Assembly: GCA_963840335.1 (NCBI GenBank)
Contig: CAWIYP010000027.1
Coordinates: 24,892 to 88,891 of the forward strand
Source: an uncultured Chloroflexia bacterium
GTDB taxonomy: Bacteria; Chloroflexota; Ktedonobacteria; Ktedonobacterales; JADMIN01
Reading direction: 5' to 3'
Length of the DNA stretch: 64,000 nucleotides
Part shown: positions 3,762 to 59,044 of the stretch, one piece after another
Position numbering within the stretch: the stretch's first letter is position 1
Layout: each line of letters begins with the position of its first letter
Program-made: the position numbers and the translations under genes
The notes under the pieces: model-generated
Databases searched by the model: none
The model's input: only the letters and a program-made list of their open reading frames with translations
What the model was told of the DNA's origin: nothing

Positions 3762-4761
3762 TCACGATTCGTCGGCAGCCTGCTCTTGCGTCGACGCGCT
3801 GGCCCGCTTGCGCTTCGGCTTCGGCGCGGGCGCGATGGGTGGCGTGTCGAACTCGCTGACGGCGGGCGCATACTCCTGCTCGCCCGTGGCGCCATCCACC
3901 GCACCCGCGCGCAGCGGGGAGCGTGGGCCGGGCACGATCTCGACTGAGCCGAAGAGCGTCTCTTGCTTGACGATGAGCCGCGACTGATGCCACATCTCCA
4001 GCACCGCGAGGAACGTCACGACCACCGCGAAGCGTGAGGTCGCCAGCAGCAACGCCTCCTCCAGCGTCACGCGGCCACGCTCAGCCAGCAGCCGCTCGAC
4101 CTCCTCCATCTTCTCGGCGACAGTGACGAGGGGCAAGCGTCAGTTGCTCTGGCTGGGAGAAGCGCTGCTCTGTCAGCACCCGCTTGAAGACCGCCGCCAG
4201 CGCGTTGACATTCAGGCCAACCAGCTTCGGTGGCGCCCAGGTCAACATCATATCGGCGTCTACGAGGCGCGTGGAGCGAGTGAAGCTCTGGAGTCCAGCC
4301 AGCTCGCGCGCCCGCAGCGACCGGGCGATCTCGCGGGCAAGCTGATACTCGCGCAGACGTTGCGCCAGCTCCTCGGCGTCATCCAGCGGATCGTCGTCTT
4401 CGAGAGCATCCTGACGAATCTGGCGCGGCAGCAGGCTCCGCGACTTGATGAGCAGCAGCCGCGCCGCCATCGCCACGAACTCCGCCAGACGCGGCAGTGG
4501 TGGCTCATCCCAGATCCGCAGGTACGCCACAAACTGGTCGGTGACAGCCACCAGCGATATGCTGGTAATCTCCATCTGGTTCTTCTCGATCAGGTTCAGC
4601 AGCAGATCGAGCGGCCCCTCGAAGCCGGGCAGATGCACGGTATATGGCTCGTCCTCGACCTCAGCGGCGGGGTCAGGCGCCAGCGGGAGTTGTGTCAGCG
4701 CATCGGCGGCTGGGGTGTCGTGGACACGGATCGCCGTGGGCTTGTTGCGTGTCTGGCCCAT
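3762..4761 (-). CDS. scpA: Segregation and condensation protein A (kleisin); frameshift near 4130
   Basis: FEGPLDLLLNLI, AEFVAMAARLLLIKSRSLLP and C-terminal VVVTFLAVLEM...Q..LFG. Confidence 0.93.
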
Positions 4762-4942
4762 ACCTCGCGCCTCCCATCTACCGCAGCGCTAACATAATCG
4801 CTTGCCCCATTCTACGAACGCCCGACAGAAGCGGTCAAAGAACGACGCCGCATGGGCTAAGACGCCGGGGCGCCGCTTGCGTCGCGCGAAGCCTCGCTGG
4901 ATAATCACAAAGGCGCGGCGAGACGCGCAGTGGAGGAGATAC

Positions 4943-29719: not shown

Positions 29720-31894
29720 TCAATCAGCGCGGTCAGCCGAACCCGCCGCCAGCGCCTCCTTCACGCGCGTTGGGGTGAAAGGAACCTGCCGCAGACGGAC
29801 GCCCGTCGCGGCGGCGATGGCGTTGGCGATGGCGGGCGCGATGACGACGGTGGCAGGCTCGCCCGCGCCCACTGGCGGCTCATCGGGTCGATCGATCAGA
29901 ATGACCTCGATCTCAGGGATTTCCGAGAACTTCAGGATGGGGTACGTCTCCCAGTCGCGGCTGAGGACGCGCGTGGTATCGAAGCGCACCTCCTCTTTGA
30001 GCGCGCGGCTGGCCCCCTGGATGATGTTGCCCTCGATCTGGTTGCGCACACCGTCGGGATTGATGATCAGGCCGCAGTCATGCGCGACGGTGACGTGGCG
30101 CAGGCGGGTCGCGCCGCTCGCGGGATCGACGGCGACCTCAGCGACGACGGCGACATACGCCTCGTCGTTTTCGTAGCGCGCGAAGGCGATGCCACGCCCC
30201 ACCCGCTCGCCCGCGGCGCCTGGCTCCGGCGGCTCGTCCCAGTGGGCGGCGCTGGCGACGGCCTCGACCACGGCGCGGGCGCGCGCATCCTCCAGGTGGC
30301 GCAGGCGGAAGGCGACGGGATCAGTCTCCGCCGCCAGCGCCAGCTCATCCATCAGCGACTCGTTGGCGAAGGTGTTGGCGGTCGCGCCGAGGCTGCGCAT
30401 CGAGGAGACACGCAGCGGCGCGCGGGCCAGCGCGTGGACGGTGACGCGGGTGTTGGCGATGGCGTAGTTCGTGGGCGCGTTGCGCTCGCCGCCGAGGGAG
30501 AAGCGGCTTCGGCGCGGGCCGCTCGCCGCGTGTAAGCTGCCCGGCGAGCAGGTCAATCGCGCGGCGCGGGCGGTTGGCGTGCGACGGCGACCAGACATCG
30601 TACTCCCAGGCGATGACGCGCCCCTCGCCATCGAGTCCGGCGCGCGTCTCCATCACCATCGCGGGCGACTTCGGCTCCCAGACGAACTCATCCTCGCGCG
30701 ACCACTGCACGCGCACGGGGCGCCTGGTCGCGCGGGCCAGCAGGGCGGCGTCGGCGGCGGCGTCATCCCCGCCATTGTGGCCGTAGCAGCCCGCGCCCTC
30801 CTGGAAGATCACGCGCACCGCTCTTTGGGTAGCTCCAGCAGGTCGGCCAGCGCGCCACGCAGCGCAAAGACGCCCTGCGAGGTCGCCCAGACCGTCAACG
30901 CGCCGTCCTCCTCGAAGCGCGCCACGGCGCAGGACGGGCCCATCGAGGCGTGCGCCTGGAACGGCTGGTAGTAGCGCGCGGAGATGACCCTGGCCGCGCC
31001 CGCCAGCGCCGTCGCCGTCGCGCCGCGCTCCTGCGCCACCTGATCGGTCGTCGGCTGCTGACGAATGTTCGTGTAGAGGTCGTCGTAGGCGGGGAGGGTC
31101 GGCGTCTCGTCCCACTCGCAGCGCAGCAGCCCCGCCGCGCGCACGGCCTGCTCCTCGCGCTCGGCCACCACGGCGACGAAATCACCGATGTGGATAGCCC
31201 GCGCGCTGGGGATCGCGGCGAGCGGGGCATCGTCGAGGGCGCGCAGGGTGGCGCCGGGGCTGGGCGGGCGCACGACGCGGGCATGCAGCATGCCGGGCAG
31301 GCGCACATCGTGGACGAAGCTGGCGGCGCCGAAGAACTTCTCGGCGAGGTCGAGGCGCGGCGCAGCGGCGCCGATGGCCGCGTAGTCGCTGGTAGACTTG
31401 AGGGGCGCCTGGCCCGTCACCACGCGCTCGCCGAAACCGCCGCCGCCCAGCAGATCGCCATAGCTGACACGGCGCTGGGGATCATCGCGGCGCGCGACGG
31501 CGCCATCCGTCGTGAGCAGGTCGGCGGGGGCGGCGTCGAGACGCTCCGCCGCGAGCGCGAGCAGCGCCTGCCGCGCCTCCGCCGCCGCGACGCGCGCGGC
31601 GCCCCAGAACGTCTGGATGCTCTTGCTGCCAGCGGTGTAGCCTTCGTTGGGGCTGCGGTCGGTGTCGCCCATGACGATCCGCACGCTGACGAGGGGGACA
31701 TCCAGCTCGTCGGCGATGACCTGGGCGAGGGCGGTGCGGATGCCGGTGCCAAGCTCCACCTTGCCGCTGAAGACCGTCACGACGCCATCGGGCGCGATGG
31801 CCAGCCAGTCGTCGAGGCGGGTGGTGGACATCGGCTGGAGGGGGGAATGGTTCTCGCCAGTGACTTCGGCGTTGCGCCAGGCGGGAGTGGACAT
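29720..31894 (-). CDS. Molybdopterin hydroxylase large subunit (NicB/IorB-like); several indels
   Basis: SGKVELGTG, TAGSKS, QAHASMGPSC, GAGCYGHNG, RPVRVQWSRE, ANESLMDELA, NQIEG, GAGEP. Confidence 0.9.
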
Positions 31895-32372
31895 CAGGCT
31901 TCCTCCTCTCCCAGAGCAGCGCCGCCGCCCGCTTGACCGCGCGGAGAATGCGCTGGTGCGAGCCGCAGCGGCAGAGGTTGTCGTCGAGCGCCTCGCGGAT
32001 CTGCTCATCGGTGGGATGCGGCGTGCGCCAGATGAGCGCGGCGGCGGTGATCATCATGCCATTGGAGCAGTAGCCGCACTGCGCCGCCTGTTCTATAAGG
32101 AACGCCTGTTGCACGGGATGCGGCTCGTCGGGCGTGCCCAGGCCCTCCAGCGTGGTGATCTGCGCGCCGACGGCCTCGCCGACGGGCAGACGGCAGCTCG
32201 CCACCGCCTCGGCCCCGCGCAGCACCTTGCACGCGCCGCACTGCTCCAGCCCGCAGCCGAAGAGCGGGCCGTTCAGCCCCAGCTCATCGCGCAGGACGTA
32301 GAGCAGCGGCGTTTCGGCGGGCGCCTGCGTCTCGTACGGCTTCCCGTTCACGGTGATGACCAGCCCAGCCAT
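31894..32372 (-). CDS. (2Fe-2S) small subunit of the Mo-hydroxylase (NicA/IorA-like); indel near the C-terminus
   Basis: GCGLEQCGAC, QCGYC, NLCRC; likely TGATG coupling to the large subunit. Confidence 0.92.
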
Positions 32373-35368: not shown

Positions 35369-35570
35369 GTCGCGGCCATGAAAGGCCGGAGCACGCGAAC
35401 GCGGCCTGAAGGCCGATACGGCACCACGATCTGGGGGATGGAGCCGCGGCCTGAAGCGGCAGGTGGCTTGGACGCGGCCCTGCAGGTCGATCCCGACGCA
35501 CGACTGTGGCCGCGCCTCCAGGGGCTTCAGCCCCATCGTCCCGCATCGCGCCGCCTTTCAAGGCCGCGAC
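35369..35570. repeat. REP/REPIN-like palindromic element, copy B (inverted relative to copy A)
   Basis: GTCGCGGCCATGAAAGGCCGGAGCACGCGAACGCGGCCTGAAGGCCGA ... GGGGCTTCAGCCCC ... TTTCAAGGCCGCGAC. Confidence 0.72.
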
Positions 35571-35581
35571 CTCTCACCCAC

Positions 35582-35620
35582 AACAAAAAGCGGCAGCCAG
35601 CGATGGACTGGCTGCCGCTT
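35582..35620 (-). terminator. Intrinsic terminator after tRNA-Lys
   Basis: AAGCGGCAGCCAG / CTGGCTGCCGCTT stem followed by a T-rich tract on the minus strand. Confidence 0.85.
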
Positions 35621-35624
35621 GCGG

Positions 35625-35696
35625 TGAGGCCGGTGGGATTTGAACCCACGACACGAGGCTTAAAAGGCCCCTGCTCTGCCCCTGAGCTACGGCCCC
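35625..35696 (-). tRNA. tRNA-Lys (TTT); CCA not encoded
   Basis: GGGGCCG TA GCTC..GAGC A GGGGC CT-TTT-AA GCCTC .. GTGGG TTCAAAT CCCAC CGGCCTC A. Confidence 0.96.
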
Positions 35697-35788
35697 TCAG
35701 TGGGGGAAGCGACGATATTGTATCACCTGCGCCACTGTCGCCGCCAGTAAGCCAGGCGACTACAATTGCTCGTGGTGGTTTTGCCCGG

Positions 35789-35804
35789 TGTTTCACGTGA
35801 AACA
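35789..35804. other. parS site 2
   Basis: Perfect TGTTTCACGTGAAACA, intergenic. Confidence 0.93.
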
Positions 35805-35837
35805 CTTCCCCTATCGACGTGGCGTCGTCGGGATACG

Positions 35838-36985
35838 CTAGCGCTGTGAAGCCGCCGCGAGCGCCTGGTCGAGGTCTTCGATCAGGTCGTCGGGATGCTC
35901 CAGGCCGATGGAGAGTCGGAGCAGGTTCTGCGGCGTGCGCGACTCTGGCCCCTCGATGCTGGCGCGATGCTCGATCAGGCTCTCGACGCCGCCGAGGCTC
36001 GTCGCGCGGGTGAAGACGCGCGTGTGCGCCGCCACCGCCAGCGCCGTCTCCGCGCCGCCGTGCGTCTGAATCGAGAGCATCCCACCGAAGAGCGCCATCT
36101 GCCGCGCCGCGATCTGCGTGGCCGGGGTGGTCGGGCAGGCCGGGATAGTGGACGGCGGCGACGGCGGGATGCGCCGCCAGGAAGCGCGCCACCGCCTGCG
36201 CATGCTCCGTGTGGCCGCGCATGCGGTAGGCCAGCGTGCGGACGCCGCGCATGGTGAGCCAGCTATCGAAGGGAGCGAGGACGCCGCCGACGCTGCCCTG
36301 AATCTGCCGGACGCGCGCGAACCGCTCATCGTCCTTCCGCGCGATGACCGCGCCACCCAGCGTGTCGCTATGCCCGCCGAGGTACTTCGTGGTCGAGTGG
36401 ACGACGAGGTCAGCGCCCTGCTCCAGGGGTCGCTGCCCGACGGGAGTCGCCCAGGTGTTGTCGGCCACCAGCGATCGCGCCTGCGCCATGCGCTAGCGCC
36501 GCGACGCCCGCGACATCGGTGATCTTCAGCAGCGGATTGGAGGGCGTCTCGATCCAGATGAGGCGGGTGTTGGGACGCAGCGCCGCCGCCACCGCCTCCA
36601 GGTCGCTCATGTCCACGAAGTCGAACGCCAGCCCCCAGGGGCCAAAGACCGTGCGCAACTGTTTCGCTGTGCCGTGGTAGACATCGCTGGGCGCCAGCAC
36701 ATGGTCGCCGGGCGCGAGCGACTGGAGGACCGCCGCCGTCGCCGCCGAGCCAGACGCGAACGCCGCCGCCTCAGCTACATCCTCGGCCCCAGCCTCCAGC
36801 GCCGCGAGCAGTCGCTCCAGCGCGTTGCGGGTGGGGTTCTCGGTGCGGATGTAGATGTAGCCGTGGGGATAGGTTCCATCGGGCGCGCGCTCGAAGGTGG
36901 TCGCGAGGTGCAGCGGTGGCGTCACCGCGCCCGTCGCGGGATCGCTCTCATGGTCAGCGTGAATCGCCAGTGTCTCGAATCGCAT
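35838..36985 (-). CDS. Cys/Met metabolism PLP enzyme (cystathionine gamma-synthase/lyase family); indels
   Basis: FETLAIH, YIRTENPT, IETPSNP, DNT, HSTTKYLGGHSD, SLGGVESL, RLSIGLE. Confidence 0.9.
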
Positions 36986-37025
36986 CTCGTCAACCTCCTC
37001 GCGCCGTTCGCGCCTGGTCACTCAG

Positions 37026-42368: not shown

Positions 42369-44392
42369 TTGGATCAGGATTTCGCGCGACAGCGTCAACA
42401 AGCCGGGTCGCAGGAGCGGCAGGCGCAACCGAACCAGTCCAATGCCTTCCCTTCCGATGACGACGAGTTGAATCCACCCTGGGATCATGCGAGTGGGCGC
42501 TGGCCGATTCCACCCCAGCCGAACGTGGCGCGCGGCGAGGATTCCTCGTCGCTGGCTGATCCGTATATGGCGCCGCTGGTGGAGCGCTCGCTGCCAAACA
42601 CCAGCATGCAGGACTTCACGGCGACCGGCAAGATCAGCGCGCTGCCAACGCTGCGCCCTGGAGTCTCATGGAGTCGTGGGCTAAAGGCGCCCAGGGCTAG
42701 CGCCAACGCAGTGAGCGCGGGCCGCGTCAATCGCGCTGGCGTCGAGATGGACGAACAGCCCTCAATGCACATGGCTGCGCTCAGGAGCAGCACACTGCTG
42801 CGCGCCACCACCATCGTCTCGCTGGCGCTGCTCATCAGCCGCATCTTTGGCATGCTGCGCACGTTCCTCTTCGCCTATACCTTTAAATATGGCGCGACCA
42901 CCGACGCCTATACCCTTGCCTTCACCTTGCCCGACGCCATCTTCAATATCATCGCGGGTGGCGCGCTGGCTTCGGCGATCATTCCGGTCTTCAATGACTA
43001 CATGGTGAAGAAGCGTGACCGCAAGTCCGCCTGGTATATCGCCAGCGCCGCCATCAATACCTCGATGATTCTGCTCGTCATCTTCTGCGTCATCTCGATC
43101 ATCTTTACTGAGCCCGTGATGCGGCTGGCGTTTGGTGACATCTTCCGCAACTGCCCCGACGGATCAAATTGCAGTGGGCCACTGGCGGTACAGCTCACAC
43201 GCATCATGCTGTTGCAGCCGATTTTCCTGGGCGGCGCGACGGTCGCCATCGCGCTGCTCCAGGCGCGGCAATCCTTCCTCGCGCCCGCGATCGGACAGGT
43301 GGTCTACACGCTGAGCATCGTCGGCGGCATCGGCGCGACCCTGCTCGATGGCAAGACGGCATCTTCGGCGGACACCTCGGCATCTACGGCCCCACGTGGG
43401 GTGTCGTCGTCGGCGCCGTCCTGCAGTTGCTGATCCAGATTCCCGCGCTGGTACGCGCCAAGATGGAGTATCGGCCCGTCGTGAGCGTCAGCCACCCCGG
43501 TGTGGTCGAGATCGCGAAGCTGATGGGGCCGCGCGTCCTCAACGCCGCCGTGCTCTATACCTCCGTCTTCATCAACCGCTTCCTGCTGATCGAGACGGCG
43601 GGTGTGCTGACGGGCTACAACACCGCGATGACGCTGATCTTGCTGCCCAACGGCGTCATCGGGCAGGCGCTCGCACAGGCGGCCTTCCCGACGCTCTCGA
43701 CGCTGGTCTCGGCGGGCGAGTGGGATCGCCTGCGCCAGACCGTCCTGCGCAGCATCCAGACGATCATCTATCTGGCGATTCCCGCTTCGCTCGGGACGAT
43801 GGTGCTCGCGCAGCCGATCGCCACCGCACTGCTCGACTATCATAACTTCGACCCTAAGGCGCTGCCTCTGGTCTACGAGCCGCTGATCTTCTTCGGCATT
43901 GGCCTCACGGGGCTGGCTCTGGTAGAAATCCTCACGCGCTCCTTCTACGCGCTGGAGAACACGCGCACACCTACCCAGGTAAGTCTGCTGCAGTTTATGT
44001 TCGTCATCGGCATGAGCATCCTGCTGGATCCGTGGGGCGGCCCCGGAATCGCGCTGGCGTCGAGCATCGCGTGGACAGGCGAGGCGATTGTGCTGCTGGT
44101 GCTGCTCCGCCAGGAGATGGGCGGCCTCGACTTCAAGGCGCTGGGCATCTTCACGCTCAATGTGCTGGCCGCGAGTGTCGCCGCGAGCCTGACCGCGCTG
44201 CTGGTCTACATGCTCGGCGAGTTCCTGCTGCCAGCGGGAACGCACTCGATCATCGAGTCAGCCAAGATGCTGGTGCGCCTGATCATGGCGATCATCGTCG
44301 GCGGCGGCGTCTACTTCAGCTTCGCGCACTTCCTCAAGATCGACGACGTGCTGCCGCTGCAACGCATCCTCCAGCGCATGCGGCGTCGGTAG
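42369..44392 (+). CDS. murJ: Lipid II flippase MurJ/MviN with a long disordered N-terminal extension; indel near 43355; start uncertain
   Basis: SRIFGMLR, DAYTLAFTLPD, GGALASAIIPVF, AAFPTLS, RSFYALENTRTP. Confidence 0.9.
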
Positions 44393-44771: not shown

Positions 44772-46329
44772 ATGACCCACGAGAATGCTTCCGTTGATAC
44801 CGCGCTCGCTTACATTGATAAGCACCAGGATCGCTTCCTCAACGAACTGTTTGACTTGCTGCGGATTCCCAGCATCAGCACGTTGCCCAGGTACAAGAAG
44901 GATGTGCGGAAGGCGGCCCGGTTTGTCGCCGCCAAGATGGAGAGCATCGGCCTGAAGAAGGTCAAGGTCATCAAGTCCGATGGGCATCCGCTGGTCTATG
45001 GTGAGTGGATGGAGGCTGAGGGCAAACCCACCGTCCTGCTCTATGGCCACTACGACGTGCAGCCAGTCGATCCGCTGGAGCTGTGGAATAGCGACCCCTT
45101 CGAGCCTGTCGTGCGTAACAACAACATCTATGCGCGCGGCGCCGTGGACGACAAGGGACAGATGTTCGGGCTGCTCCAGGCGCTCGAGGCCCTCATGCGC
45201 GCCTACCACGGCTTGCCCGTGAACGTGCGTTTGCTGATCGAGGGTGAGGAAGAGGCTGGCGGCGAGTCCATCGAGGAGTATGTCCGCACGCACCCGCAGA
45301 AGCTCAAGTGCGACGTGGCGTACATCGCCGATACGGGCATGCCCGCACCGGGCGTCCCCGCGATCATCTATGGCCTGCGTGGCATTACCTATACGGAGTT
45401 CGTGGCGAAGGGCGCCACGCATGACCTGCACTCTGGCGCGTTCGGTGGCGTGGCGCCCAATCCGATCCACGCGCTGGCGCTCGTGCTGGCCGGGCTGAAG
45501 GGCGCCGATGGGCATATCACCATCCCGGAACTCTATGAGCGGCTGAAGGGTGTCACTGAGCAGGAGCGGGCGCTGTGGAATCGCAGCCCGGTGGACGTTT
45601 CAGCTATCCTGAAGAAGGAAATGGGCGTGGATGTTCTCCCTGGTGAGGAAGCAGATCGACCCACGCGAACGGCTGGCCGCGCGCCCCACGCTGGAGGTTC
45701 ACGGCATTCGCGGCGGCTTCGTGGATGAGGGCGCCAAGACGGTCATCCCGGCGGAGGCGGTAGCGAAGGTCAGCCTACGCCTGCCACCCGAGCTACGCCC
45801 GCAAGAAGTGCTGCCGCTGCTGCGCAAGCGGGTCGCGGAGCTGTGCCCGCCAGGGGTGACGATCGAGGTACGCGAGGTACATAGTGGCGATGGCGTGAGC
45901 GTGCCGCTCGATAACGTCTATGTCCGCGCGGCAGAGCAGGCGGTGGAGCAGGAGTGGGGCGTCGCGCCAGTCTTCGAGCGCGAAGGCGGCTCCATCCCCA
46001 TCGCGGCGCTCTTCGACCAGGTGCTAGGCGCGCCTGTCGTGTTGGTTGGTGTCGGCCTGCCCGACGATAACATCCATGCGCCGAACGAGAAGATTCACCT
46101 GCCCAACTACTACCACAACATCCGCCAGGCGACGCGCTTCCTCGACATCGTGGGGCGCGATCCCGCCATCCTGGCACGTCCGAAGCAGATGGGCATGGCG
46201 TCACAGGCGGTCAAGGCGAAGGCCACGGCCAATGGCGCCAAGGCAAACAACAAGGCGAACAGCAAGGCGAGCGCGAACAATACTACGCATGGCGCTCACC
46301 GCAAGCACGCGACGGAGAACAAGGCATGA
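44772..46329 (+). CDS. M20 family dipeptidase; indel near 45650; basic low-complexity tail
   Basis: YGHYDVQP, ARGAVDDKGQ, EGEEE, DLHSG, GGSIP, HAPNE. Confidence 0.92.
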
Positions 46330-49881: not shown

Positions 49882-50428
49882 AGAACGTGCGCTGCACCGC
49901 GCCCTTACCGTTTGCGCTCATCGACATTGAGCGCGCCAGAGCTATCCCCTGAGCGAGCAGGCCCAGAGCCTGCGCAGGGTGATCTCCTCAAATGCCCGCG
50001 TCTGTGCGGGTACGCCGAACCACCAGCGCAAACTGGAGGCCAACATCTACGGGATGTCGCGGGAAAAATCGTCCTCGCCGCTCTCACTACCTTGTCGCGT
50101 CGCATGCTCGCGCCCGCCAAGCCACGGCGTCTTTCGCGCGAGCGATCGCATCAGAGCGGCTACAATAACGCCTGATAGCTCAGGCGTTTCTGATGTAATT
50201 ACTTTCTCATTGTACCTGACTGCCATCCCAGACGCTAGTGCGCAAGACCTCTTTCGCGCCAATCTTAGCTTCGTCTCAGTAGCATTGCTGGGAGGCGACG
50301 ATGCGCCGTTGCGAGCCGACCGCGACATCATCAATTGCGCAGCCAGCGTCACACTTTCACTCACCTGATCGCGCATGCTATTCTACGTTACTCACCACAT
50401 TCGCCAGCAGAAAGGGGAAAGTCTGTCA

Positions 50429-51054
50429 ATGCTTGATGCGCCCGATTCGTTCTATCCAACGCTCATCCCTGTCGCCGAGGAGTTGCGCGGGCCGCGCATC
50501 GTCCTGCGGCGCCACCGCGCGGACGACGCCGCCGACCTCTTCGCCGCGCTGAAAGCCTCGCGCGAGCGGCTGGCGCCCTGGCTGGGCTTTCCGAATCAGC
50601 TCGTAAGCATCGAGGCGACGCGCGATTTTCTGATCCGCCGCGAGGCAAAGTGGCTGCTGCGCGAGTTATTGGGGTACGCTATCTGGCACGGCGAGACACA
50701 GGAGTACTTGGGCGGCGTTGACTGCACTCCATCGCATGGGAGCGGCGCTTCTTCGCGCTCGGCTACTGGCTGCGTGACGGCGCCGAGGGACAGGGCTATA
50801 TGAATGAGGCGGTGCGGCTCGTGACGGACTACGCCTTCACCACACTCAGCGCCAACAAAATCGCTCTGTGCTGCGACGCCCGCAACACCCGGAGCGCCGC
50901 GGTAGCGGAGGCGCTGGGCTTCGTGCTTGAGGGACGGCTGCGTAGCGAGATGCTCGCGAAAGATGGGACACTGGCCGACGAACTACAGTATGCGCGCATA
51001 CACGACGATCCCCGCTGGTCGAGCGCCAACATCCCACATGGCGCCTCGGTGTGA
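50429..51054 (+). CDS. RimJ/RimL family GNAT N-acetyltransferase; indel near 50722
   Basis: SRERLAPWL; GYWLR...GQGYMNEAV; CDARNTRSAAVAEALGFVLEG. Confidence 0.88.
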
Positions 51055-51089
51055 CGATGTTGGCGGCAATGAGTTGGCGGCGCTACTCC

Positions 51090-51880
51090 AAAGAAATTTT
51101 ACATAATTACAGAAAAAGTCAGCCAAAGTCGTCCACATCTGGCGGAGTTGTCCACTGGTCAAGTGGATAACTCGCACGCATGACGCTGACGCGGATCACC
51201 TGGCGGCGTGGTGGCGCGCAACGTGTTAGCTGGCGCCACCACATCGCCTTCGCCAGCGCATCGAGCAAATCACGCGATTCGTGGATAAATGGCCAATTCT
51301 TGTGGAAAAGTGACCGCAACTGTAGATAACTATTGGCGAAGTCTGATGTTTCTGGACTCCACCTGGGGCCAGCGCTATCCTACTTTAAGTTGTGGATAAC
51401 CCTGTGGATAACTTTCTGTGGATGTGGATAACTGGTGGGAATGTCGGGGCGCCGCTGGTGGACATCTGGATACCCTCACGTTGGCTGTGTGGATGAGTCT
51501 GTGGAGAGGTTGGGGATGACGGTGGATAGTTCTCGCGCCATCCACATCCGCTGTGGATGGCATTGGGGATAGCCTGGGGATGCTGTGGATGGCGCTCAGG
51601 AGTTATCCTCAATCATCCACAAAAGGGCGGCGCCTATCCCCGCGTTCCGCAGGACTTGCCCACGAGTGGAACGGCTACCAGTCAAGCGCGTGTAAGTGTG
51701 CCATCCTGACAGGCTCAGGGCTTGCACCCCCACACACAGACCCCTGCAAGCGGTTATCCCCACTATCCACCGGCCCTAATACTACGACTACTATTCTTAT
51801 ATCCTTCTATTAAATATAAAGAAAGAGAAGAAGAGGAGATGACGACGCTGATGACTTATCCCCAGACGTCATCCACAAAC
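51090..51880. other. Probable chromosomal replication origin oriC
   Basis: Perfect TGTGGATAA at 51391, 51403 and 51423. Single-mismatch boxes at 51162, 51280, 51301, 51321, 51488, 51603, 51613, 51754, 51856 and 51869. Unwinding module at 51754-51832. Confidence 0.9.
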
Positions 51881-52082
51881 GGACACCGACCGCTTCACAT
51901 CTCCCGTTGCCTGATATGTCTCCTGCCCAGATGGCCAGGGTGGCGCCTGCTCCAACGCGGGGCGCACACACATCGCCATTCGCGGTACCGTTCTGAGGGT
52001 AACACCTGGCCGCTCCAACTCAGAGGCGGCGTGGAGATCATACCCCGTGGCTGCGGCTACGCGGGAAGGAGTAGAGCAAACA

Positions 52083-53015
52083 ATGTCAGATGAGACGACA
52101 CAGGCAAGCGCATTGAGCGCATTTTCCGATCAACTCGCGAATGCTGTCGAACAGGCGTCGCGTTCGATTGTCTCGATCTCCGCGCGTCCGCGCCAGTCGG
52201 CAAGCGGCGTTCTCTGGCAGGCGGATGGCGAAGTGGTGGTGGTGACGGCGGATCATGTGGTCGAGCGTGAAGAGGACATTACGCTGACCATGCCCGATGG
52301 CCGCGTGCTGCGTGCGACCCTCGCAGGGCGCGACCCCAACACCGACCTCGCCGTCCTGCGCCTGCCGAGCGCCGACCTCGGCGCGAACGCTGCCGCCATC
52401 CAGCTCAACGAGGGGCTGCGGGTGGGGCATCTCGCCCTCGCGGTTGGCCGACCTACTGAGGGCGGGCCGCGCGTCTCCTTCGGCGTCGTCAGCGCCATCG
52501 AGGGGCCACGGCGCGCGGGCCACGGCGCCCAGATCGAGGGGATTATCTTCGCCGATGTGACCCTCTACCCTGGCTTCTCCGGTGGGCCACTGGTTGATCT
52601 CGATGGCAAGATGGTTGGCCTCAACAGCTCCCGCCTGACTCGCCAGAGCGCCGCGTTGCCGCTGGCCACGGTGCGTCGCGTCGTCAGCTCACTGCTGACC
52701 CATGGGCGCATGCGGCGCGGCTACCTCGGCGTTGGCACGCAGCAGGTCGCTCTGCCTACCGCTTTCGCGCAGAAGGTCGGTGGCTCGCAGGAGAGCGCCC
52801 TGCTGGTGGTGACAGTCGAGACGGACAGCCCTGCTGAGCGTGCGGGCATGTTCATCGGCGACCTGATCGTGGGGATCAATGGGCAGAACGTGAGCGGCGT
52901 GGACAGCTTGCGCAGCGCGCTCGCCGCCTCGCTTCCCGGCCAGGCGATCACCTTGAAGGCGCTGCGCGCCGGTGAGCCAACCGACATCGCCGTCACCGTT
53001 GGCGAGCGCGCGTAG
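52083..53015 (+). CDS. S1C serine protease with PDZ domain, no signal peptide
   Basis: TADHV, DLAVL, YPGFSGG; C-terminal PDZ. Confidence 0.9.
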   Translation: MSDETTQASALSAFSDQLANAVEQASRSIVSISARPRQSASGVLWQADGEVVVVTADHVVEREEDITLTMPDGRVLRATLAGRDPNTDLAVLRLPSADLGANAAAIQLNEGLRVGHLALAVGRPTEGGPRVSFGVVSAIEGPRRAGHGAQIEGIIFADVTLYPGFSGGPLVDLDGKMVGLNSSRLTRQSAALPLATVRRVVSSLLTHGRMRRGYLGVGTQQVALPTAFAQKVGGSQESALLVVTVETDSPAERAGMFIGDLIVGINGQNVSGVDSLRSALAASLPGQAITLKALRAGEPTDIAVTVGERA

Positions 53016-53114
53016 GTGGGTCTCGCCCTCAGCGACAGTTCCAGCCGCAGCCTCACGCACGTCTGTGGATGATCGCGTGAGGCTGCGGCGCCTCTGGAAA
53101 GGACATCATCGGCA

Positions 53115-54119
53115 ATGGCTGATGTGAGAGATACGAGTGGCATGTCGGCGCTAGGCGCCCTCTCGGAGGCGACCGCGCGGCTCGCGGAGCAGGCGAGCGC
53201 CAGTGTGGCGCAGATTCGCGCGGGCGCCCATGGCCTTGGCGCGGCGATCATCTGGGAGGTGGGCGCCCCAGACGCGACCGGTGAGGCGGATGCGACCGTC
53301 ATTACCAATGCCCATGTCGTCGCGGCAGGCCGTAGTGAGCAGGTGACGCTGCGCCTGCGCGATGGCCGCGAGCTAGCGGCGCAGGTCGTGGCGCTGCACC
53401 CTGAGCACGATGTCGCGGCGCTGCGGACGCGGGGGCGTAACCTGCAAGCGGCCACCATCGGTGACTCCAGCGCGTTGCGCGTGGGCGAACTGGTCGTCGC
53501 GATTGGACATCCGTTTGGAATCGAGGGCGCGGTGACGACTGGTGTCGTGGCGGCGCAGTCACCGGCGGATCCCGATCTCGATCTGGAGCCAGCGCTCCCG
53601 CGTGGGCCGGGCTGGCTGCCACGCCGTTTCGCGCGGGTGGACCTGGTGCAGGCTGACATCCGCCTCTACCCTGGCAACTCTGGCGGACCGCTGCTCGATG
53701 CGCAGGGTCGCGTGGTCGGCGTGAACGCGATGGTGGGCGGTGGTCTGGGCTTCGCGATCCCCAGCAACACGGTCAGACGCTTCCTCGATGAGACTGCTCG
53801 CACCGGCCAGCGTGTCTACATCGGTGTGCAGGCGCAGACGGTTCCGCTCTCGCCAGTCCAGCGCCAGCGCGTCGGCGTGGAGCATATCACCGTGCCACTG
53901 GTCATCGCGGTGGAGGCGGATGGGCCAGCGGCGACGGCGGGGATGCTGGTCGGCGATGCGCTGCTCGCGGTGGATGGCCGTCCGACCTACACCGCCGAGA
54001 CGCTCGCGCGTCTGCTCAATCGCCCCGGTACGCCAGGCCAGGCGCGCACGCTGGAGATTCTACGTGGTGGCCAGCGCATCATCATCACGCTGACCCCTGC
54101 GCAGCGCGCGGCGGCCTGA
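53115..54119 (+). CDS. S1C serine protease with PDZ domain, no signal peptide
   Basis: TNAHV, DVAAL, YPGNSGG; C-terminal PDZ. Confidence 0.9.
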   Translation: MADVRDTSGMSALGALSEATARLAEQASASVAQIRAGAHGLGAAIIWEVGAPDATGEADATVITNAHVVAAGRSEQVTLRLRDGRELAAQVVALHPEHDVAALRTRGRNLQAATIGDSSALRVGELVVAIGHPFGIEGAVTTGVVAAQSPADPDLDLEPALPRGPGWLPRRFARVDLVQADIRLYPGNSGGPLLDAQGRVVGVNAMVGGGLGFAIPSNTVRRFLDETARTGQRVYIGVQAQTVPLSPVQRQRVGVEHITVPLVIAVEADGPAATAGMLVGDALLAVDGRPTYTAETLARLLNRPGTPGQARTLEILRGGQRIIITLTPAQRAAA

Positions 54120-56397: not shown

Positions 56398-57498
<1,101 letters not shown>

Positions 57499-57693
57499 AC
57501 TTCTCTCCTCATTCACGGCGCTCGTCACGTATCCGCATGCGACGCGCAGGCCGTCTTTCCTGTGGGTTCGCTCCTCCGCCCGCGCGGATGGGAGATTCTC
57601 TGAATGTGTCGTGTCAGGGGCGCCACGCGCCGATCATTTGGATGTTGTCTGGCTCGCGCGCGGGAGGGTAAGTAGCATCTGTGTGAAAATAGT

Positions 57694-58426: not shown

Positions 58427-59044
58427 CTACAGCTCACGGCGGCCTTCGAGGGCGCGGCTCAGTGTCCCCTCGTCGGCGTATTCCAGGTCGCCGCCGATGG
58501 GCAGGCCGCGCGCCAGACGGGTGAGCAGCAGCCCAGGCCGGGCGATGGCCTGCGAGATGTACGTCGCGGTGTAGTCGCCTTCCTGGTTGGGATTCGTCGC
58601 CAGGATCACCTCGCGCACTGGCTCGCCCTCGGCGTTGGCGCCCACCCGCACACGCGCCGCCAGCTCGTCGATCTTCAGGTCGCGCGGGCCGATGCCCTCC
58701 AGCGGCGAGAGCGCGCCATGCAGCACATGGTACACACCCTTCAGCACGCCCGTCTTTTCCAGCGCCAGCACATCCAGCGGCTGCTCGACGACGCAGATGA
58801 TGGTGTGGTCGCGTTCAGGGCTGGCGCAGATCGGGCAGGGGTCCGACTCGGTGATATTGCAGCAGATCGAGCACTGGATGGCGTTCTCTTTGACCCGCGT
58901 AATCGCCTCCGCCAGACGCCGCGCCTGATCGGCGGGACTGCGCAGGATATAGAACGTCAGCCGCTGCGCGCTCTTGGGGCCGATGCCGGGCAGTTTGGCC
59001 AGTTCCTCGATGAGCGCCGTGATGGACGCGGATGTTGTCTGCAT
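58427..59044 (-). CDS. recR: Recombination mediator RecR
   Basis: LPGIGPKSAQR, C4 zinc finger, YHVLHG, EVILAT, LEYADEGTL. Confidence 0.98.
   Translation of the reverse strand: MQTTSASITALIEELAKLPGIGPKSAQRLTFYILRSPADQARRLAEAITRVKENAIQCSICCNITESDPCPICASPERDHTIICVVEQPLDVLALEKTGVLKGVYHVLHGALSPLEGIGPRDLKIDELAARVRVGANAEGEPVREVILATNPNQEGDYTATYISQAIARPGLLLTRLARGLPIGGDLEYADEGTLSRALEGRREL

Follow-up and report, generated by a model that had tools for sequence, protein, structure and literature searches.

A predicted chromosomal replication origin with a Bacillus-type unwinding module, unlinked from dnaA, in an uncultured Ktedonobacterales bacterium

The intergenic gap at positions 51100-51880 of the window (the whole stretch of 64,000 nucleotides analysed here) is very probably the chromosomal oriC of an uncultured, soil-dwelling member of the Ktedonobacterales (phylum Chloroflexota), with an unwinding module of the Bacillus type and no linkage to dnaA; its activity as an origin we infer from its sequence and that of its relatives. 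An earlier note on this DNA had read the gap as an active origin unlinked from dnaA, and that reading gains support from the presence of a full core, from conservation in 12 of 12 genomes of the genus, from the single copy of the core, and from a switch in strand composition at the core in two relatives. A replication start point can accordingly be proposed for this uncultured lineage.

The assembly comprises 3.38 Mb and is 67% complete, with a GC content of about 65%; the window lies in contig C27, where the predicted oriC occupies 76.0-76.8 kb. A gap of about 1 kb separates the end of a GNAT gene at 51054 from the start of a protease gene at 52047 (GTG) or 52084 (ATG), and the Pfam matches (Acetyltransf_3 on the left, Trypsin_2 and PDZ on the right) agree with the earlier placement of the gap between a GNAT gene and a protease operon. 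Both pieces of the GNAT gene match Acetyltransf_3 (E = 5.7e-4 and 9.9e-9), at profile positions 1-77 and 97-138 respectively. The features of the locus are as follows.

50375-51054, plus strand: GNAT acetyltransferase gene, left flank, outside the origin; two overlapping frames, 50375-50803 and 50800-51054
51129-51156, plus strand: two weak boxes, each with two mismatches, on the left edge of the gap and next to DNA of 68% AT
51162-51592, minus strand: left array of 16 DnaA boxes, of which 3 are perfect, 5 have one mismatch and 8 have two; a further box, at 51538, faces the other way
51603-51621, plus strand: first box pair of opposite orientation, one mismatch each, where the orientation of the array turns; conserved (alignment columns 780-807)
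51754-51771, plus strand: box pair of the putative unwinding module, 51754-51762 with one mismatch and 51763-51771 with two, directly adjoining
51772-51775, no strand: GC spacer GGCC; the better box is separated from the first trio by 13 bases, made up of the second box (9 bases) and GGCC
51776-51799, minus strand: putative DnaA-trio array of eight triplets (3' to 5'), with a central A in seven and an exact GAT in four
51777-51840, no strand: putative AT-rich unwinding element, overlapping the trios; the most AT-rich 50-mer of the window is at 51777 (78% AT)
51856-51877, plus strand: two one-mismatch boxes past the AT-rich element, near which homology to the origins of most relatives stops
51920-52014, plus strand: conserved non-coding DNA ahead of the protease gene, with which it travels, and not with the origin
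52047-53015 and 53115-54119, plus strand: two tandem genes for HtrA-like serine proteases (Pfam Trypsin_2 and PDZ), right flank, outside the origin

The conserved stretch at 51920-52014 and the box cluster match different contigs in four relatives (G005, G012, G004 and G010), and a search of 50800-52300 against Rfam returned nothing beyond a microRNA match at chance level (E = 0.26). Short contigs from relatives in four environmental public runs match parts of 50300-53300, with 0.05-0.21 of the sampled words in common; one contig of 497 bases spans 51391-51886 and another of 151 bases bridges 51779-51930. A misassembly at the gap had been named earlier as a point to check, and we note that a short independent contig spans the junction of oriC and protease gene, with no joint reported. 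Depth in these runs over the 3 kb is uninformative on a coverage peak, and the uncovered parts carry no evidence. A role of the boxes as regulators of the protease operon was considered and rejected: no boxes lie upstream of the orthologues in L037, L039, L040 and L041, and four of the six close protease orthologues have at least 3 kb of upstream DNA with zero boxes in it.

The window contains 19 matches to TTATCCACA with no more than one mismatch, against 3.57 expected from 100 shuffles (sd 2.12, largest 10), none of which reaches 19. Thirteen of the 19 lie within the 716 bases of 51162-51877, three of them perfect (51391, 51403, and 51423) and ten with one mismatch, exactly as the earlier note had counted, and its two opposed groups are likewise present: eight boxes reading TGTGGATAA on the plus strand (51162-51496) and five reading TTATCCACA (51603-51877). 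When two mismatches are allowed, 25 of the window's 105 boxes fall in the 800 bases of 51100-51900, the density elsewhere being 1.27 per kb. The whole assembly holds 16 perfect and 324 one-mismatch boxes; its densest 1 kb is the oriC gap, with 13, and the runner-up has four. The cluster stands well above background, as expected for a DnaA-dependent oriC. Box triplets repeat every 96-97 bases in the left array, and among the six families of direct repeats in the gap, four are built on DnaA boxes and one consists of copies of a one-mismatch box, which leaves a single pair of 17 nt. The left edge (51129-51156) is poorly kept in relatives (alignment columns 1-100); the second most AT-rich 50-mer of the window is at 51089.

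The elements of the gap follow in the order: 16 same-orientation boxes, boxes of the opposite orientation, a box pair, a 4-base GC spacer, GAT-type trios, and the AT-rich 50-mer. The published rule for a basal unwinding system calls for a box with no more than two mismatches, a second box with no more than four, a spacer of 0-16 bases (13 being the commonest) and at least three consecutive NAN trios with the consensus 3'-GAT-5' (PMC8287927), and TTATCCCCACTATCCACCGGCCCTAATACTACGACTACTATTCTTA (51754-51799) conforms to every one of these search rules. Counted from 51776, the trio register consists of three consecutive NAN triplets (two of them GAT), one deviant triplet, and four more NAN triplets; in most relatives one extra base breaks the register after the third trio. 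The relative strand of boxes and trios at 51754-51799 is provisionally taken to be that of the published convention. The box pair is nearly invariant in nine of ten aligned sequences and is part of a class-wide single-copy core. By its sequence the AT-rich element lies next to boxes as expected of an oriC; it is only 44% identical among relatives, but its AT-richness is kept (60-72% AT over the 60 bases after the core in nine sequences).

These elements suggest how the origin may work. DnaA would fill the array of about 25 boxes, and the box pair at 51754-51771, which faces the AT-rich element, would seat DnaA-ATP as an oligomer on one strand, at the adjacent trios of the GAT type; this oligomer would stretch and open the AT-rich DNA at about 51777-51840, where DnaB helicase would be loaded by DnaD-like and DnaI-like proteins, whose genes lie elsewhere in the genome. 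We propose that the left array (51162-51592) is a DnaA-oligomerisation region, and this long opposed array could act as a platform for oligomerisation and delivery.

The incC part of the Bacillus subtilis oriC contains DnaA-box 6/7, DnaA-trios and an AT-rich region that together form a 'basal unwinding system' (PMC6669920, PMC8287927). The window origin resembles it in having a box pair, a short GC spacer, GAT-type trios and AT-rich DNA in the same order, as well as a 13-base spacer, at least three NAN trios, and more boxes upstream in either orientation; it differs in not lying beside dnaA and dnaN, in its far larger upstream array (16 same-orientation boxes), in a host with two DnaA paralogues, and in being a sequence-based prediction. 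Like the E. coli origin, it is a predicted chromosomal origin unlinked from dnaA, with two opposed box arrays beside a single unwinding element. The E. coli oriC lies at the gidA-mioC position and has 13-mer, IHF, and GATC features. The window origin, unlike that of E. coli, is not enriched in GATC, the mark of control by Dam and SeqA, with one GATC in 51100-51900 and 21 in a locus of 4029 bases against 21.4 expected. The E. coli oriC is also separated from dnaA (PMC8287927), and its trio score is called weak in the same paper, whereas the trio module of the window origin is clear. With this predicted origin, a deep-branching phylum joins the evidence for the box and trio unwinding module as ancestral.

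Conservation of the gap follows its predicted functional elements. Its DNA matches all 12 same-genus genomes and 18 of 24 of the same family, the matches spanning query positions 205-811 (window 51259-51865). Identity to the window in eight relatives is 80% on average in box columns, 90% in the spacer and trios (51772-51793), and 43% in other columns (Mann-Whitney p 8e-35; one alignment row dropped). The conservation of boxes and trios across the 12 genomes of the genus argues for continued use. The core of box, spacer and trios is found in 87 of 169 Ktedonobacteria genomes (85 of 167 if the two unpublished genomes G080 and G118 are left aside) and occurs once per genome in 86 of the 87; a reversed-pattern control matches 14 genomes. 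The core pattern is absent from 82 of the 169, including two of the 12 from the same genus. As expected of a feature present once per chromosome, it is single-copy in the target assembly (67% complete), and even in relatives of 9-14 Mb. This 19-base signature locates the putative origin in half of the genomes of the class, and could help to orient assemblies, to estimate growth rates from metagenome coverage, and to build shuttle vectors for these natural-product producers, which resemble actinomycetes.

In this genus the predicted oriC is not linked to dnaA, dnaN, or dnaG. The earlier note had found the usual origin genes missing nearby, and this extends to the contig: dnaA, dnaN, gyrB, parB, and rpmH are all absent from C27, and the gap does not adjoin dnaA or dnaN as origins commonly do. 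The two dnaA copies of the assembly are on C20 and C15, gyrB is on C8, and rpmH is on C25; dnaN and parB were not found in the 67%-complete assembly, where there is no ParB_N match either. Inspection of the dnaA flanks, which the earlier note had called for, shows no box cluster beside either copy, the one-mismatch boxes within 5 kb being scattered and numbering 0 and 4. The separation of oriC and dnaA holds in all six single-contig relatives examined, from four genera of the class. Two dnaA paralogues are present in every relative examined, at 0.38-1.0 Mb from the core, and the nearer dnaA is 376-685 kb away in all six with the core and both copies on one contig, the G040 distance assuming a circular contig. 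For the two sister-family genomes examined, G040 and G111, the core lies 0.46-0.78 Mb from both copies. Linkage of oriC to dnaA is therefore not the rule in Ktedonobacteria; the unlinked arrangement, already known in other bacteria, is the usual one in this class. A published survey (PMC13289182) gives Ori-Finder 2022 origin predictions for cultured members of the same class, located where the cumulative skew forms its main V, and reports dnaA and dnaN contiguous with parA and parB on chromosome-like contigs; its available sections do not describe origin anatomy. By comparison, dnaN of G040 is more than 800 kb from either dnaA, and the origins of G040 and G111 are beside dnaG-rpoD.

The same two relatives provide compositional evidence, with the core exactly at the sign change of GC skew in both of these single-contig genomes. 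The single 5.61-Mb contig of G040 has positive skew in the samples between 0 and 2.24 Mb; between 2.52 and 5.32 Mb the samples are negative or close to zero, one of the eleven, at 3.92 Mb, reading +0.005. The skew passes from -0.028 to +0.031 inside a 20-kb piece centred on the core cluster, which has 33 boxes, 14 of them perfect. For G111, a single contig of 4.86 Mb, skew is -0.067 over the 20 kb to the left of the core and +0.103 over the 20 kb to the right; nine of nine samples left of the core are negative and ten of 11 to the right are positive.

Skew support for the origin from the window's own contig is weak. Plain GC skew on C27 is -0.008 left of the gap and +0.011 right of it, a low amplitude, and because the plain cumulative skew is too noisy to locate a switch we used a hexamer strand-bias score instead; trained on 14 contigs picked for constant skew sign, this score is amplified skew and not independent evidence, and its sign is correct for 300 of the 316 held-out windows of 5 kb. 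Along C27 the score is negative in nine of nine windows at 5-50 kb and positive in four of five at 70-95 kb, with minima at 50 kb and 70 kb, 26 and 6 kb to the left of the gap. Judged by eye, C27 is the only one of 16 non-training contigs of at least 25 kb to show a minus-to-plus turn; the dnaA contigs of the assembly hold one skew sign throughout, with no switch. A clean switch is absent from two long same-genus contigs that bear the orthologous cluster: the bias is patchy and near zero on either side in G005:C21 (350 kb, cluster at 142 kb), and in G009:C6 (319 kb, cluster at 162 kb) the cumulative curve bottoms out at 180 kb, with a left arm that is not negative overall. As a separate observation, a single-contig genome of the same family, G019, was tried as an origin locator and set aside, as both skew and hexamer bias flip sign at high amplitude across its 20 samples; it does not have the core pattern, and the two small clusters of boxes that it does have, at 2583 and 2653 kb, adjoin phage-like and glycosyltransferase genes.

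The assembly also contains two terminus-type bias switches, on C24 at about 35 kb and on C32 at about 95 kb, and these, together with the two dnaA genes and a subset of contigs with lower GC, could be accommodated if the gap were the origin of a second replicon, either a chromid or a megaplasmid, as the earlier note had offered in the alternative. Large secondary replicons are indeed reported in 10 of 20 Ktedonobacteria genomes (PMC13289182). We regard this as very improbable, however, since the core occurs once in 86 of 87 genomes, the 9-14 Mb ones included; in G040 and G111 it shares a contig with both dnaA copies, dnaG, and rpoD; and the GC content of C27 (65.0%) is the same as that of the assembly bulk. 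Pfam scans of 101 ORFs of the window (29 and 72) revealed no dnaA, dnaN, gyrB, parB, rpmH, Rep, ParA, or ParB family, and the gap was not found to combine iterons of a kind other than DnaA boxes with a neighbouring rep or par gene in the manner of plasmid- or chromid-type origins. The secondary replicons described in the available sections of PMC13289182 are without canonical Rep initiators or dnaA, with dnaA and dnaN on chromosome-like contigs.

DnaA boxes clustered away from dnaA are also a feature of DnaA-regulated promoters and of non-origin clusters, such as datA and DARS in E. coli and the DnaA-box clusters of B. subtilis. Non-origin clusters are not known to have a trio or AT-rich unwinding module or to lie at a skew switch. 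The gap could be a locus of this kind, either a titration site like datA or the Bacillus clusters or a DnaA-controlled promoter region, with the true oriC in the unassembled third of the genome, although we think this distinctly unlikely. With an assembly only 67% complete, a bigger cluster could lie in the missing part; moreover, Ktedonobacteria carry several DnaA-box clusters (G040 has three), one of those in G040 and the runner-up of this assembly precede an operon encoding DnaB, DnaD-like, and DnaI-like proteins, and skew on C27 and the two same-genus contigs fails to pin a switch at the cluster. Such regulatory clusters, however, have 4-9 boxes, and the assembly's own example, a 4-box cluster before dnaB on C13, has no trios after its box pair, whereas the oriC gap combines 25 boxes with a trio module that obeys the published rule and with the window's most AT-rich stretch. 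The core in the gap is single-copy and orthologous to that at the skew switch of G040 and G111, and the protease orthologues found elsewhere without boxes likewise speak against a regulatory site. A scan of same-genus genomes that are 87-90% complete, for perfect boxes only, found no larger cluster, the orthologous origins themselves scoring just 1, 2, and 3 in it.

Within the genus the cluster has varying neighbours, namely GNAT and protease genes in the window and G003, methyltransferase and inositol-phosphate synthase genes in G005, and PspA and hydrolase genes in G008; differing neighbours are unusual for an origin, and we count them against the oriC reading. The sister-family site in both genomes examined is between a glycogen-debranching gene and dnaG-rpoD, whereas dnaG in the window's genus is on another contig than the origin. 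Together with strand bias that is weak or patchy at the cluster in all three genus contigs examined, this is what might be seen if the origin had recently moved or were under replacement in the genus, its module intact and its firing shifted or the composition not yet adjusted. The strong conservation of boxes and trios across 12 genus genomes makes this extremely improbable, as does the failure to see an alternative cluster in the assembly or in the same-genus scan for perfect boxes. Because an origin that has moved and still fires remains the origin, such a move would mostly qualify, and not replace, the interpretation of the gap as the chromosomal oriC.

Both DnaA paralogues retain the N-terminal, AAA+ and helix-turn-helix domains, and they form two orthologous groups, with 68-92% and 53-59% identity to copy 1 of this genome. 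The available text of the literature found on origins, oriC, dnaA, and dnaA paralogues of Ktedonobacteria gives no account of this origin or of paralogues in the class, and PMC4072686 concerns another phylum. One speculative and rather doubtful idea is that a single chromosomal origin of Ktedonobacteria is served by a pair of ancient full-length DnaA paralogues with divided tasks, one perhaps occupying the long degenerate array and the other forming the unwinding filament on the trios, and that the origin of this genus is a self-contained module that has moved to new neighbourhoods without replication genes. An experiment would be best spent on the two DnaA paralogues, which occur class-wide and are both distant from the origin; in four of the six relatives examined, the two dnaA genes lie on opposite sides of the origin.

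The DnaA-box cluster in the ~1-kb intergenic gap at ~51100–51900 is very probably the chromosomal oriC of an uncultured bacterium belonging to the class Ktedonobacteria, its sequence predicting an origin with a Bacillus-type unwinding module that is unlinked from dnaA, dnaN, and dnaG. Scoring a DnaA box as TTATCCACA with no more than one mismatch, we find 19 in the window versus 3.57 expected, and not one of 100 shuffles of the window reaches 19. The count in the earlier note is exact: 51162–51877 holds 13 of these boxes, of which three are perfect and the other ten carry a single mismatch. The minus strand has eight (51162–51496) and the plus strand five (51603–51877). When two mismatches are allowed there are 25 boxes in 51100–51900, and 1.27 per kb in the rest of the window. 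The gap is also the 1-kb stretch with the highest box density in the whole of the window's own assembly, G000 (40 contigs, 3.38 Mb, rated 67% complete), with 13 boxes against four in the runner-up. The features of the gap and its borders are as follows.

50375–51054, GNAT gene, split over two frames; left border of the gap
51162–51592, minus strand, left array of 16 boxes (box scan, no more than two mismatches)
51603–51621, turn in box orientation (box scan)
51754–51799, core TTATCCCCACTATCCACCGGCCCTAATACTACGACTACTATTCTTA: a one-mismatch box, a two-mismatch box, GGCC, then triplets
Following GGCC, complementary strand, eight triplets reading as GAT-type DnaA-trios: seven with a central A, four exactly GAT, the first three consecutive
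51777, the window's most AT-rich 50-mer, 78% AT (the genome is 65% GC)
51856–51877, two further boxes (box scan)
From 52047, two tandem Trypsin_2+PDZ protease genes; right border of the gap

Relative to the 5′-TTATCCACA-3′ reading of the boxes, the trios are on the complementary strand, which would agree with the customary way of writing these motifs. A published search for basal unwinding systems (PMC8287927) allows up to two mismatches in the box and up to four in the second box, a spacer of 0–16 bases (13 being the commonest), and requires at least three NAN trios; the gap core conforms to every one of these rules, with a spacer of 13. Of the six direct-repeat families in the gap, four are built from boxes, one more repeats a one-mismatch box, and the last consists of just one 17-nt pair; the recurring box triplets are spaced 96–97 bases apart. 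Within the gap we found no enrichment of GATC, and an Rfam search of it gave no family match.

Matches to the gap DNA, spanning 51259–51865, are present in 21 of the 41 genomes searched (G000 included), with 12 of 12 genomes matching at the level of the genus and 18 of 24 at that of the family, and the orthologous loci contain 9–18 boxes and retain the two-orientation layout. In an alignment of ten sequences (the G001 row, with only the left half at its locus, was excluded from the identity figures), identity to the window is 80% in box columns, 90% in the GC spacer and trios, and 43% in the remaining columns. The AT-rich stretch is just 44% identical, yet its composition stays at 60–72% AT. 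Such a pattern marks selection that acts on protein-binding sites and on base composition rather than on a sequence coding for protein or RNA.

A 19-base core pattern, consisting of the end of the second box, the spacer, and the first trios, is present in 87 of the 169 genomes of the class that we scanned (the 87 include two unpublished genomes, G080 and G118), and in 86 of these it is single-copy; the reversed pattern, used as a control, matched 14 genomes. Two single-contig genomes of the sister family, G040 (5.61 Mb) and G111 (4.86 Mb), place the core relative to GC skew. In G040 it is part of a cluster that packs 33 boxes (14 perfect) into 1.1 kb, and the skew changes from −0.028 to +0.031 inside a 20-kb piece centred on this cluster; sampled skew is positive over 0–2.24 Mb, whereas the 11 samples over 2.52–5.32 Mb are below or close to zero, one of them reading +0.005 (at 3.92 Mb). 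In G111 the 20 kb to the left of the core has a skew of −0.067 and the 20 kb to the right +0.103, with nine of nine samples negative on the left and 10 of 11 positive on the right. The reading of the gap as an origin unlinked from dnaA, put forward in the earlier note, is thus supported by a box/trio core that is orthologous to those at the skew switches of G040 and G111.

We note that the G040 origin (L048 10380–10510; G040:C1 ~5481.2 kb) is mirror-symmetric, with a box pair, GC spacer, and inward-facing trios on both sides, the two modules flanking one short AT-rich centre. In the sampled skew, the sign change at the origin is the only one over the entire 4.86-Mb G111 contig (G111:C1, L118–L137), as would be expected if the chromosome were linear and its origin central, or if the contig had been cut at the terminus. 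A further single-contig genome (G019:C1, L016–L035) has strong skew whose sign flips between samples 250 kb apart, and this looks like either a chromosome that has undergone heavy rearrangement or pieces joined without regard to orientation.

Most large G000 contigs have a constant skew sign, and a replication-linked bias therefore exists in this genome. A hexamer strand-bias score trained on 14 constant-sign contigs was tested on 316 held-out 5-kb windows and gave the right sign in 300. For C27, the contig whose positions 24892–88891 make up the window, the score is negative in nine of nine windows at 5–50 kb and mixed at 50–70 kb; at 70–95 kb, four of five are positive. The earlier note expected skew to map the origin near the gap, which is at 76.0–76.8 kb of the contig; C27 does turn from minus to plus, but its cumulative minima fall at 50 and 70 kb. 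Among the 16 non-training contigs of at least 25 kb, no other has such a turn when judged by eye. The bias is consistent with an origin somewhere on C27, without placing it at the gap. Elsewhere in the genus, bias is patchy and near zero on either side of the G005 cluster (C21), and the cumulative minimum of G009:C6 is 18 kb past its cluster, with a left arm that is not negative overall; rearrangement around the origin may have blurred the signal. Two G000 contigs, C24 (~35 kb) and C32 (~95 kb), have plus-to-minus, terminus-type switches, and a subset of large contigs (C12, C20, and C24) has lower GC (60.5–63%) and stronger skew; these could reflect one terminus plus rearrangement, or hint at a second replicon.

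As the earlier note claimed for the window, the whole of C27 lacks dnaA, dnaN, gyrB, parB, and rpmH, and a Pfam scan of 101 window ORFs found none of these families. In G000, C8 carries gyrB and C25 carries rpmH; neither dnaN nor parB turned up in this 67% complete assembly, and there are two copies of dnaA:

G000:C20:289606–291546 (L001), dnaA copy 1, 646 residues, intact
G000:C15 ~94504–96094 (L002), dnaA copy 2, read in two frames

Both retain the N-terminal, AAA+, and helix-turn-helix domains, the skew sign stays constant along the full length of each contig, and within 5 kb one copy has four scattered boxes and the other none. Two full dnaA genes are present in nine of nine relatives examined, forming two orthologous groups (68–92% and 53–59% identical to the C20 copy) that are common to other Ktedonobacteria families. 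In the six relatives with the core and both copies on one contig (G040 treated as circular), the distance to the core is 376–685 kb for the nearer copy and 685–1016 kb for the farther, and in four of the six the copies are on opposite sides of the origin, 0.4–1.0 Mb off; dnaN is at yet another location, apart from both dnaA and the core.

Origins apart from dnaA are already known, E. coli being one example named in PMC8287927, and the gap oriC would resemble that of E. coli in this separation. For Ktedonobacteria, a 2026 paper (PMC13289182) puts origins at the skew V by Ori-Finder, and describes dnaA/dnaN as contiguous with parA/parB on chromosome-like contigs. In the literature on Ktedonobacteria origins and dnaA paralogues we found no account of this origin's anatomy or of a dnaA paralogue pair in the class. 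Of more interest are the by-products: a core that is single-copy across the class, a pair of ancient DnaA paralogues, and the shifting neighbourhood of the origin in the genus.

A synteny comparison shows that the genes flanking the cluster vary between species of the genus:

G005, methyltransferase and inositol-phosphate synthase
G008, PspA and hydrolase

In G003, the closest relative, the protease side is as in the window, and dnaG is not on the origin contig in any of four genus genomes examined. In G040 and G111, which represent two sister-family genera, the origin has a glycogen-debranching enzyme gene on one side and dnaG-rpoD on the other (L048, L126, L127). Within the window, recA and recR (56398–57528 and 58427–59044, both on the minus strand) are 4.5–7 kb rightward of the origin, and an scpA-like gene (4084–4788) is close to the left end. 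The non-coding stretch at 51920–52014, upstream of the protease gene, is 74–80% conserved in six same-genus genomes; because it is on a contig other than that of the origin cluster in four of the six, we take it to belong to the protease gene, as a putative leader or regulatory element.

The assembly was also examined around the gap. Four environmental runs contain short contigs, from related strains, that overlap portions of 50300–53300, one corresponding to 51391–51886 and another bridging the origin/protease junction (51779–51930), and no joints were reported in them over this region; independently, the right half of the G003 origin adjoins the protease gene. Single-base length differences from the related environmental contigs occur at eight places in 3 kb, and the window's MoCoBD, Cys_Met_Meta_PP, MurJ, M20 peptidase, and GNAT genes are split over two or three overlapping frames (29723–32050, 35530–37021, 42369–44392, 44772–46329, and 50375–51054), as are dnaA copy 2, dnaB, and dnaG elsewhere in G000. 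These are probably assembly indel errors rather than pseudogenes, and they leave the conclusion about the origin untouched.

The four-box runner-up in G000 (L117 7194–7348; G000:C13:109193–109348) is directly upstream of a dnaB/DnaD-like (DnaB_2)/DnaI-like (IstB) operon and has a box pair with no trios after it. A nine-box cluster in G040 (L049 9921–10068) likewise directly precedes a dnaB/DnaD-like/DnaI-like operon, and both are likely ordinary candidates for DnaA-regulated promoters. A perfect-box scan of same-genus genomes that are 87–90% complete, which is blind to clusters of mismatched boxes, turned up nothing beyond the orthologous origin, the cluster at the dnaB operon, and a single paired site. 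The DnaB of G040 contains an intein.
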